Shown piece after piece: positions 52,201 through 52,456 of a stretch of 64,000 nt of DNA (within the stretch, counting starts at the first letter, position 1; each line of letters starts with the position of its first letter). The notes beneath the pieces were generated by a model. It did no database searches. It was given only the letters and a program-made list of their open reading frames with translations, and was not told the DNA's origin. The translations under genes and the position numbers were made by a program. This stretch comes from a phage: assembly GCA_012557565.1 (NCBI GenBank), contig GCA_012557565.1_3926.1; one strand, given 5' to 3'.

Positions 52201-52434
52201 GCCTAATAAGATTTAAAGCTGAGACTATTTGTTCGAGCAAGTGTTTCAGGTTTCCTCTTCGTGTATTGGCATACACGGCACTGGTAAAGCACCTAGTAGG
52301 TGTCACGGAGAAGAGATAGTATCAAGCTCTCCAAAGGTTCTAGTCACCGGATTAAACAAGACTATGCAAAGGCCAATAGGTCTTTTTAGAGAATTGTTAA
52401 GGCATTTGATACCATTGTTGCTTTGGCGTCTTAG

Positions 52435-52449
52435 CAGTTCTCTACAAAG
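52435..52449 (+). repeat. 15-bp repeat CAGTTCTCTACAAAG, copy 2
   Basis: Identical to 51316-51330. Confidence 0.7.
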
Positions 52450-52456
52450 ATTTAAT

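Follow-up and report, generated by a model that had tools for sequence, protein, structure and literature searches.

Two small stable RNAs of phage T4, annotated rnaC and rnaD (species 1 and 2; 119-139 nucleotides (nt)), are encoded between or next to transfer RNA (tRNA) genes on the same strand, in a cluster that also hosts the homing endonuclease segB; we know of no function for either RNA. In Escherichia coli, the 3'ETS-leuZ small RNA sponge and the rtT RNA of tyrT are precursor fragments released by RNase E and RNase P that persist and act in trans, and the tyrT spacer carries a small basic open reading frame (ORF). Here we describe a comparable arrangement in a phage DNA stretch of 64,000 nt (contig GCA_012557565.1_3926.1 of GenBank assembly GCA_012557565.1; hereafter the window), where a preliminary description had flagged four hairpin-rich, tRNA-free segments of a tRNA gene cluster as possible sources of small RNAs. 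The main element among them is the 253-nt spacer between the genes for tRNA-Ser(TGA) and tRNA-Leu(TAG), which we call the Ser-Leu element. Comparison with related phages indicates that the conserved spacer elements of this array are very probably functional RNAs. As in T4, they are putative non-tRNA RNAs that lie between or next to same-strand tRNA genes. They differ from rnaC and rnaD in being longer, more numerous and predicted from sequence, the similarity in sequence is limited to the T-arm in rnaC, and T4 lacks the Ro60-like gene that accompanies the array of the window. In contrast to the short and poorly structured 3'ETS-leuZ and rtT RNAs, the Ser-Leu element is predicted to be a 250-nt multi-hairpin RNA with an invariant core, and it has no match to the rtT family of Rfam.

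Ro60 proteins and their Y RNAs provide the second point of comparison. Chen et al. 2014 (PMC4201824) described a permuted tRNA-like order for YrlA RNAs and found their genes on the strand of Ro60 genes, no more than 4 kb away. Phage-borne Y RNA/Ro60 systems have been described from mycobacteriophages (PMC4201824) and from Thermus phage phiLo (PMC12135203), and one has been proposed for Listeria phage CKA15 (PMC12282133). The latter phage encodes, in an Rsr-like gene, a protein of the same family as that in the window, and RNA sequencing (RNA-seq) revealed three highly transcribed unannotated regions by its tRNA genes, which the authors proposed to be Y RNAs (PMC12282133).

Sequence comparison identifies the window as a Felix O1-like phage of the Ounavirinae, Mooglevirus-like in type. 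About 300 Ounavirinae genomes match the region, nearest among them those of the Mooglevirus members Sf16 and Sf17, both Shigella phages; Felixounavirus and Suspvirus show 80-90% identity to it. An origin of the element from the E. coli host found no support, as 5,426 E. coli genomes contained nothing similar. ARAGORN predicted 25 tRNA genes within 5.2 kb (50010-55238), every one on the plus strand, and Rfam added a weak tRNA at 50918-50992. The array is flanked by an ORF of 471 amino acids (aa) at 48429-49844 and by the large terminase gene (55671-57287). We compiled tRNA order and spacer lengths for 35 loci, the set to which the locus labels (L001 and so on) used below refer. The gap between array tRNAs is typically 1-8 nt. 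The large spacers share a pattern in which a long hairpin lies 2-10 nt 5' of the next tRNA, followed by an AU-rich tail (CAAAGAU..UUAAU). All four flagged segments lie between plus-strand tRNAs and 3' of sigma-70-type promoters at 49953 and 51514, and no strong terminator was found among them within the array. In the records that we inspected, the flagged intervals are unannotated or carry spurious small ORFs.

The length of the Ser-Leu spacer is 239-257 nt throughout the Felixounavirus, Mooglevirus and Suspvirus phages that we examined, except for three loci in which a 150-aa HNH gene is placed 3' of an intact element, at the 5' edge of tRNA-Leu. It was found in 254 GenBank records and in 25 IMG/VR contigs. 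We calculated a conservation profile over 51188-53110 from 10 GenBank phages of three genera, which were chosen without regard to the core. Columns 52288-52362 are 96% invariant in this profile, level with the best tRNAs, and in the flank at 52213-52262 pairwise identity is only ~50%. Over 52285-52395, identity is 92% or higher in every one of the 254 GenBank records, with the differences falling in the loop of hairpin D. Searches with nhmmer found no relatives of the Ser-Leu element elsewhere in the window, in Kolesnikvirus, in phages PMBT37 and Wc4-1, or in 1 Mb of Ro60-like loci. Both this element and the spacer between tRNA-Thr and tRNA-Val, described below, are restricted to Felixounavirus, Mooglevirus and Suspvirus.

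Pairing was assessed in 26 distinct sequences against a 47-pair consensus structure. All of the 1218 pair cells were standard (1218/1218), compared with only 36-54% when the 3' partners were slid. The variants contain 15 extra pair types, and a full double change was observed at one pair only. Thus, covariation in the Ser-Leu element is modest in kind, though consistent. The individual hairpins (Table 1) are preserved in different ways. H1 occurs in 15 distinct sequences belonging to at least five unrelated types, each of which forms a hairpin alone at -7.3 to -14.3 kcal/mol. The microhelix that opens the core has arms identical to the acceptor strands of the window's own tRNA-Leu(TAG) (GCACCTA at 52457 and TAGGTGT-ACCA ending at 52533), and it is unchanged even in phages with the other tRNA-Leu allele. 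Hairpin D is predicted to fold at -5.9 to -9.3 kcal/mol; its loop is variable in both length and sequence, and pairing in its stem survives the R/Y changes. Two other pairings compete with it, since GGUU of H4 could pair with its 5' half and the base of stem E with its 3' half. All of these alternatives agree with the natural variants and therefore cannot be ranked. In stem E, 9 of the 25 base pairs (bp) vary, none is broken and at least five are G.U pairs. On the opposite strand the latter would be A.C mismatches, and the structure is therefore expected to form only in plus-strand RNA. The apical loop of stem E, UUGUUGCUU (52415-52423), is invariant, and the pairs closing it alternate between CCA/UGG and CCU/AGG.

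The description of the four segments as hairpin-rich is borne out by folding, since all of them fold more stably than their dinucleotide shuffles (n=200 per segment). The z values were -3.70 for 52204-52456 (0/200 shuffles equal), -3.07 for 50993-51187 (0/200), -3.56 for 51264-51344 (1/200) and -2.37 for 51549-51775 (3/200). The inverted repeats quoted in the preliminary description are all present: GTGTAT-TGGC-ATACAC lies at 52261-52276 and constitutes H2, CACCTA-GTA-GGTG lies inside 52289-52303, and the long-range stem TTGCAGT...ACTGCAA forms part of 21-nt arms (51039-51059 and 51163-51183) that are 86% complementary. The promoter that it had placed at 51514-51542 (TTGACA-17-TATAGT) matches the sigma-70 consensus at 11/12 positions. 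Its outer stem, CTCTTCGTG/CACGGAGAAGAG, holds up in part. Both sequences exist, but the 5' arm varies and the register is inconstant among lineages; moreover, the stem shares three bases (GTG) with the GTGTAT hairpin, so that both cannot form fully. By comparison among relatives this is the weakest-supported of the proposed helices. Rfam, run at gathering and permissive thresholds on the window, on the cluster and on the 266-nt element alone, returned only tRNAs, together with chance-level matches in the flagged segments, where neither a tRNA nor an Rfam family was recognized even at E<=10.

The other flagged segments show the same interplay of kept pairing and changing sequence to different extents. 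The long-range stem before tRNA-Lys(TTT) contains six doubly compensated pairs among 18 distinct sequences (-48.6 kcal/mol). Its interior differs throughout between two lineages, except for the invariant 10-mer AUUCUAGAUU (51108-51117). The structured 230-nt leader of tRNA-Arg(TCT) is strongly conserved together with its promoter. Its T-arm-like hairpin covaries between UGAGG/CCUCA and CAGGG/CCCUG, and its terminal hairpin comes in two versions of unrelated sequence, each a long stem that abuts tRNA-Arg. The internal promoter preceding the leader has, in 16 relatives, an invariant -35 hexamer and either TATAGT or TAAGAT as its -10 hexamer. Outside the three genera, nhmmer also located the leader in Kolesnikvirus EAP4 and in Salmonella phage PMBT37 (E ~1e-31). 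The segment at 51264-51344 is present in the window and in L001-L004, L026 and L034, that is, in Mooglevirus-type phages plus one Felixounavirus, and is replaced by just 4-6 nt at the other loci; judged by this distribution it is an optional insert. An exact 15-mer, CAGTTCTCTACAAAG, is common to this insert and the 3' arm of stem E. Taken together, the proposal that the segments encode structured RNAs finds comparative support in 52204-52456, 51039-51183 and 51549-51775, where covariation points to selected structure, and not in 51264-51344, which is lineage-restricted. In these three segments, the compensatory changes, the G.U pairs, the lack of broken pairs and a conservation of sequence that reaches the level of tRNAs indicate that RNA pairing is under selection on the tRNA strand. 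A further structured spacer, between tRNA-Thr and tRNA-Val, had not been flagged. It is 95-99 nt long in all relatives, near-invariant in 16 distinct sequences and predicted to fold at -28 kcal/mol. One stretch of it, GAAGACCGUAACAAAU, looks like a degenerate form of the 5' module of the Y-RNA-like elements described below, and the spacer has no match to the model of that family (R1).

The 471-aa ORF upstream of the array ends 165 nt before the first tRNA. It contains the Pfam domains DUF2828 and DUF7788 with an invariant MIDAS motif, and it belongs to PHROG 850 ('RNA-binding protein'). We predicted its structure using AlphaFold2 (predicted local distance difference test score 84.6, predicted template modelling (TM) score 0.85). 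In a Foldseek search of the PDB with this model, each of the top 8 matches was a Ro60/TROVE protein in its full length, of Xenopus, human or Thermus phage phiLo (E 1e-8 to 1e-6, TM 0.51-0.59). The ORF therefore models as a Ro60/TROVE ring plus vWA protein, in a divergent DUF2828 branch that shows 11-16% identity to solved Ro60 structures. A tblastn search found the family in 705 phage records, including mycobacteriophages in which it is annotated 'Ro-like RNA binding protein'. The gene also adjoins a same-strand tRNA array, or is embedded in one, in Yersinia phage P778, in a 148-kb uncultured phage and in Vibrio phage phi-pp2. In uncultured phages with the Ro60-like gene (L081:8605-9054, L087:11715-12132 and L040:7231-7305), we also observed transfer-messenger RNA (tmRNA) genes nearby; one of these phages has a tRNA with the anticodon CTA, which looks like an amber suppressor.

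Following this gene, a repeated element occurs in four copies in the 5' part of the array. A terminal stem, AGACCNN/NNGGUCU, is common to the copies; its 5' strand is directly followed by UUACAGCAA and its 3' strand by CUG. Between phages the stems covary, and the outer stem of element 2 alternates between UUAC/GUAA and UUGC/GCAA. Element 4 is the tRNA-like member. Its interior comprises a V hairpin, followed by a canonical T arm (50968-50984), an acceptor-like stem of 7 bp that is closed by a loop (50985-51000) and a D arm (51002-51018); RNAalifold gives a permuted cloverleaf, and three of the acceptor-like pairs are doubly compensated. We built a covariance model, R1, from 19 elements of environmental phages, with the Ounavirinae excluded. 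These 19 training elements were picked by a stem filter, and their covariation statistics are therefore partly circular. An independent search with R1 of 67 other sources (824 kb, both strands) gave 59 matches at E<=1, 57 of which lie on the strand of the Ro60-like gene. At E<=0.05, 27 of the 34 matches outside the window fall within 300 nt of a Ro60-like gene. In EAP4, PMBT37 and Wc4-1, which have no Ro60-like gene at the locus, the R1 search gave no match. By this covariance model, the family recurs beside Ro60-like genes in dozens of unrelated phages. A weak R1 match was also seen in the window at 635-703 on the plus strand (22.8 bits, E 0.08), distant from the array and beside TTGACA-like hexamers. 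Two conserved hairpins (GAGAGGGCUUUUUAGCCCCUC; CCUUAAAGAG..CUUUAAAGG) lie at 50767-50818 on the plus strand, between tRNA-Asp and element 3.

The elements at 50178-51043 resemble Y RNAs and YrlA in lying no more than 1.2 kb from a Ro60-fold gene, on the same strand, and in combining a terminal stem with a 5' motif. The features of the phage stem-plus-UACAGCAA type are all found here, namely the 7-bp stem, the motif, the 3' C-U-G, the strand and the proximity to the Ro60-like gene. Element 4 further resembles YrlA in its order of V hairpin, T arm, closed acceptor stem and D arm. The elements differ from YrlA in carrying UACAGCAA instead of GNCGAAN0-1G, and element 4, searched as a 191-nt sequence, has no match to the Rfam YrlA family (RF02553; gathering threshold 69 bits) at E<=10. 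Mycobacteriophage Lolly9 has the same layout directly 3' of its Ro-like gene, with two short elements flanking one long element, and the tRNA-like part of the long one is a sub-threshold match to Rfam YrlA (37.7 bits). We infer from these comparisons that the window encodes a Ro60-like protein together with three short and one tRNA-like Y-type RNA, previously unannotated. The Ro60-like protein and the four Y-RNA-like RNAs show that the locus encodes an RNA-surveillance-type ribonucleoprotein (RNP) system. The preliminary description, confined to the flagged segments, had overlooked the most interpretable RNAs of the cluster: these four elements and the Thr-Val spacer, along with the nearby Ro60-like gene.

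The short elements also resemble an RNA family of social amoebae. The dictyostelid Class I RNAs are ~60 nt long, with a 6-bp terminal stem that shows compensatory changes, a conserved 5' G, the 11-nt motif CCUUACAGCAA by the 5' strand and a 3' CUGU (Kjellin et al. 2021, PMC7919456). The phage elements follow the same plan, with G, a stem of 6-7 bp, (CC)UUACAGCAA, a variable loop, the closing stem strand and CUG(U), the 5' G being paired to the 3' C. The Rfam model of the Class I RNAs (RF01414) was the only recurrent sub-threshold Rfam match to the Y-RNA-like family, at 21-29 bits against a gathering threshold of 41.5. It scored 21.2-24.9 bits for elements of the window and 28.9 bits for the one at 7413-7473 of L057; at the gathering threshold it had no match in 11 loci. 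Unlike the phage elements, the Class I RNAs are eukaryotic, have their own upstream promoter element and have the RRM protein CIBP as their known direct partner. We know of no link between Class I RNAs and a TROVE/DUF2828 protein. The resemblance between the two groups may be convergent or due to chance. Among the Class I RNA pull-down partners, the uncharacterised DDB_G0281243 is a candidate TROVE-type link.

We compared the flagged segments themselves with the Ro60/Y RNA system. The Ser-Leu element lies 2.4 kb 3' of the Ro60-fold gene on the same strand, within the ~4-kb distance that applies to Y RNAs. Its best score against R1 is 6 bits, and none of the flagged segments matches the model. 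It contains neither GNCGAA nor the UACAGCAA motif; H1 and stem E are separate hairpins at its two ends and do not make a terminal stem. Of the tRNA-like parts it has only an acceptor-type microhelix; H2 and H3 show no likeness to T or D arms, and RF02553 and RF00019 gave no match at E<=10. We therefore rejected Y RNA membership of the Ser-Leu element, which lacks the terminal stem with its motif, the T and D arms, and a match to R1 or YrlA. The 51039-51183 and leader elements likewise lack the stem and the motif, and Y RNA membership is rejected for the flagged segments as a group.

Table 1 Features of the tRNA array and its upstream gene in the window. R1 is the covariance model of the Y-RNA-like family; flagged elements are the segments singled out in the preliminary description.
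Feature	Position	Strand	Basis or remark
Ser(TGA)-Leu(TAG) spacer RNA, main flagged element, 253 nt	52204-52456	+	Conservation, predicted fold
H1 hairpin, directly 3' of tRNA-Ser, then UUU	52215-52253	+	Structure kept, sequence variable
Outer-stem arm CTCTTCGTG	52255-52263	+	Located in sequence
H2 hairpin GUGUAU-UGGC-AUACAC	52261-52276	+	6 pairs, 3 one-sided variants, 0 broken
Near-invariant 86-nt core	52286-52371	+	Conservation in 3 genera
Acceptor-stem microhelix GCACCUA-G-UAGGUGU	52289-52303	+	Opens the core
Outer-stem arm CACGGAGAAGAG	52304-52315	+	Located in sequence
H3 hairpin GGAGA...UCUCC of the core	52307-52332	+	RNAalifold; sole polymorphism (G/A) in loop
H4 hairpin UAGUC...GACUA of the core	52341-52364	+	RNAalifold; polymorphisms only in 14-nt loop
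Hairpin D, AAAGRCC-loop-GGUCUUUUU, terminator-like (GGUCUUU then UU)	52368-52385	+	Folds in 9/9 variants
Stem E, 25-bp hairpin ending 2 nt 5' of tRNA-Leu	52377-52454	+	-28.6 kcal/mol
Second flagged element, 23-bp long-range stem around ~100 nt	51039-51183	+	Ends 4 nt before tRNA-Lys(TTT)
Third flagged element, 78-82-nt hairpin insert between tRNA-Lys and tRNA-Met	51264-51344	+	Lineage-restricted
Sigma-70-type promoter inside the array	51514-51542	+	TTGACA-17-TATAGT
Fourth flagged element, structured leader 5' of tRNA-Arg(TCT)	51549-51775	+	Conservation, covariation
Leader D-arm-like hairpin	51612-51641	+	
Leader T-arm-like hairpin	51642-51661	+	
Leader invariant hairpin	51682-51708	+	
Leader terminal hairpin	51709-51772	+	
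Thr-Val spacer, structured, not flagged earlier	52862-52956	+	Conservation
Ro60-like (TROVE ring + vWA/MIDAS) gene, 471 aa	48429-49844	+	Pfam, PHROG, AlphaFold2/Foldseek
Short Y-RNA-like element 1, Glu-Met spacer	50178-50249	+	R1 21.2 bits
Short Y-RNA-like element 2, Met-Asn spacer	50341-50411	+	R1 40.5 bits, E 5e-6 (824-kb search)
Short Y-RNA-like element 3, Asp-Lys spacer	50824-50900	+	R1 24.8 bits
Long Y-RNA-like element 4, permuted tRNA-like domain	50912-51043	+	R1 matches 5' module

Several other features of the array were noted in passing. A tRNA-Tyr(GTA) gene at 50567-50654 on the plus strand is annotated in Sf16 (tRNAscan-SE), was missed by ARAGORN and scores a sub-threshold 22.8 bits with Rfam. 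The plus strand at 52020-52100 holds a gene that resembles tRNA-Trp(CCA) but has an anticodon loop of 9 nt, CCUCCAAAA; neither ARAGORN nor Rfam called this gene in the window, and it could be a pseudogene or an unusual decoder. ARAGORN predicted a tRNA-Trp between tRNA-Ile and tRNA-Ser in L015 and L021, possibly at an equivalent position. The tRNA-Leu(TAG) gene (52457-52533) exists as two unrelated alleles with a mosaic distribution over the genera, and in L025, L027 and L034, where the 150-aa HNH endonuclease gene lies at its 5' edge, the start of the tRNA is partly duplicated. Further 3', 272 nt are duplicated in tandem (53330-53601 and 53602-53873, 74% identity); the duplication carries the 3' half of tRNA-Arg(ACG) along with a degenerate copy, as well as a pair of small paralogous ORFs of 92 and 75 aa.

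We consider the chances somewhat better than even that the flagged segments are functional RNA modules of a polycistronic tRNA transcript, which are cut out of it and whose core persists. In such a pathway, cleavage by RNase P would generate the 5' end of each following tRNA, and RNase E may cut in the AU-rich single strands that flank the modules (UAAUAAGAUUUAAAG, AAAGAUUUAAU). RNase III probably cuts the 23-25-bp duplexes directly before tRNA-Lys, tRNA-Arg and tRNA-Leu. Hairpins processed by RNase III in polycistronic transcripts, such as those of the T7 R1.1-like type, are irregular duplexes of ~20 bp or more. Duplexes of at least 20 bp are present in stem E (25 bp) and in the 51039-51183 stem (23 bp); the terminal stem of the leader has 16 bp. 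Cutting would free the intervening structured pieces, with H1, stem E, the 51039-51183 stem and the terminal hairpin of the leader presumably acting as signals for processing and insulation. The invariant core with hairpin D as its end would then persist as a stable RNA of ~100-250 nt and may bind, in a sequence-specific manner, a protein or RNA partner tied to tRNA or RNA surveillance.

Several observations weigh against this proposal. We found no RNA-seq or transcriptome study of Ounavirinae transcripts in the literature, and the termini of the RNAs, like their stability and abundance, are deduced from the DNA. The core never varies. Therefore, H3 and H4 receive no support from covariation, and constraint at the RNA level and at the DNA level are inseparable over the 86 nt. 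Hairpin D, at -6 to -9 kcal/mol, is a weak terminator. An ORF that starts with GTG within the core (52300-52389) is open in 30/30 distinct variants. Finally, the Ro60-like gene of Yersinia phage P778 is not accompanied by the Ser-Leu or the Thr-Val element, and the leader occurs in EAP4 and PMBT37, which lack the Ro60-like gene. From these distributions, coupling to the Ro60-like protein lacks support from co-occurrence. We accordingly regard a functional tie between the flagged segments and the Ro60-like system as no more than a possibility.

The same structures could be purely cis-acting scaffolds that prevent misfolding of the tRNAs and offer entry sites to RNase III, RNase E and RNase P, after which the fragments would be degraded without a function of their own. 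This would account for the long hairpin that ends each large spacer 2-10 nt before a tRNA with a similar AU-rich tail, for the way in which H1, the terminal hairpin of the leader and the 51039 stem hold their structure despite sequence change, and for the dispensable insert between tRNA-Lys and tRNA-Met. It leaves unexplained the 86 invariant nucleotides, the 9-nt apical loop of stem E, the 10-mer within the 51039 stem and the near-invariant Thr-Val spacer, and most tRNAs of the array stand 1-8 nt apart and are scaffold-free. We consider a role restricted to scaffolding unlikely.

A much broader role is conceivable, in which the entire tRNA array serves a phage Ro60-like RNP system as its RNA arm. 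The stem-UACAGCAA RNAs would be its Y RNAs, and the Ser-Leu core, the Thr-Val spacer and the leader would be partners or decoys that shield or quality-control the phage tRNAs against tRNA-targeting defences of the host. By extension, the dictyostelid Class I RNAs would be Y-RNA-like partners of a TROVE/DUF2828-type protein, with DDB_G0281243 as the candidate. We regard this scheme as a whole as rather improbable.

The Ser-Leu element might alternatively be a riboswitch-like attenuator, whose core senses a ligand or factor, selects hairpin D or the alternative pairings and thereby tunes the 17 downstream tRNAs. A conserved core is indeed followed by hairpin D and UUUUU, the alternative pairings are compatible with all natural variants, and our scan detected no promoter between the element and the downstream tRNAs. 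However, hairpin D is a short, AU-rich helix (-6 to -9 kcal/mol), the candidate antiterminator has just 4 bp, no known riboswitch or leader family matches in Rfam, and the variation does not separate the alternative pairings. We consider attenuation very unlikely. Two related signals were sought and rejected. A promoter scan of both strands within the Ser-Leu spacer was negative, a TTGGCA / TAAAGC pair noticed by eye being mis-spaced, and a boxA/nut-like antitermination site in the core reached merely 7/12 matches by eye.

Coding potential offers another explanation of the core, which could specify a small basic peptide from the GTG at 52300 (29 aa in the window, MSRRRDSIKLSKGSSHRIKQDYAKANRSF). 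Besides the open frame mentioned above, gene callers have annotated this ORF in some relatives. There is no Shine-Dalgarno sequence before it, the start codon lies in the microhelix, and frameshifting indels change the C-terminus and produce versions of 26, 29, 48 or 52 aa. Almost no site of the core varies, synonymous sites included, beside saturated sequence, for which coding constraint alone is insufficient. The overlapping ORF at 52229-52525 is a genuine open frame of 98 aa with a TTG start that runs into tRNA-Leu (52457-52533). It is intact in only 4/30 distinct relatives, so that coding is unlikely, and Pfam gave no match for it. Thus, the preliminary view of the segments as non-coding and of this ORF as spurious is upheld. 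We rejected a protein-coding gene in either frame on the grounds of unstable frames, the missing ribosome-binding site, the near-invariant stretch and the absence of a Pfam match, and we hold a peptide to be an extremely improbable explanation of the core.

Equally little probability attaches to the spacers being debris (decayed tRNAs, homing-endonuclease scars or products of gene conversion) or protein-binding DNA elements: tRNA fragments are visible in the core microhelix, in the D- and T-like hairpins of the leader and in the tRNA-Trp-like relic at 52020-52100, HNH genes are mobile in the array and the tRNA-Leu alleles are mosaic, but neutral relics are not expected to be invariant over 254 genomes with saturated flanks, the compensatory changes and strand-specific G.U pairs indicate selection on RNA pairing, and co-conversion would not yield the same sharp-edged island in each lineage.

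Felix O1-like phages are used in Salmonella typing and biocontrol and are candidates for therapy against E. coli and Shigella, and more than 250 sequenced genomes carry the elements described here. Several non-tRNA RNAs in the array are conserved as tightly as the tRNAs, which implies a role of the array beyond the supply of adaptors. The 86-nt core, the stem-UACAGCAA RNAs and the Ro60-like protein offer defined targets for experiments. If the extended scheme involving Class I RNAs were true, these abundant, developmental RNAs, thought to be unique to social amoebae, would join the Y-RNA-like partners of a TROVE/DUF2828-type protein. The recurrence, in many unrelated phages, of a Y-RNA-like family by Ro60-like proteins and tRNA arrays points to a widespread RNA-surveillance or anti-defence module in phages.

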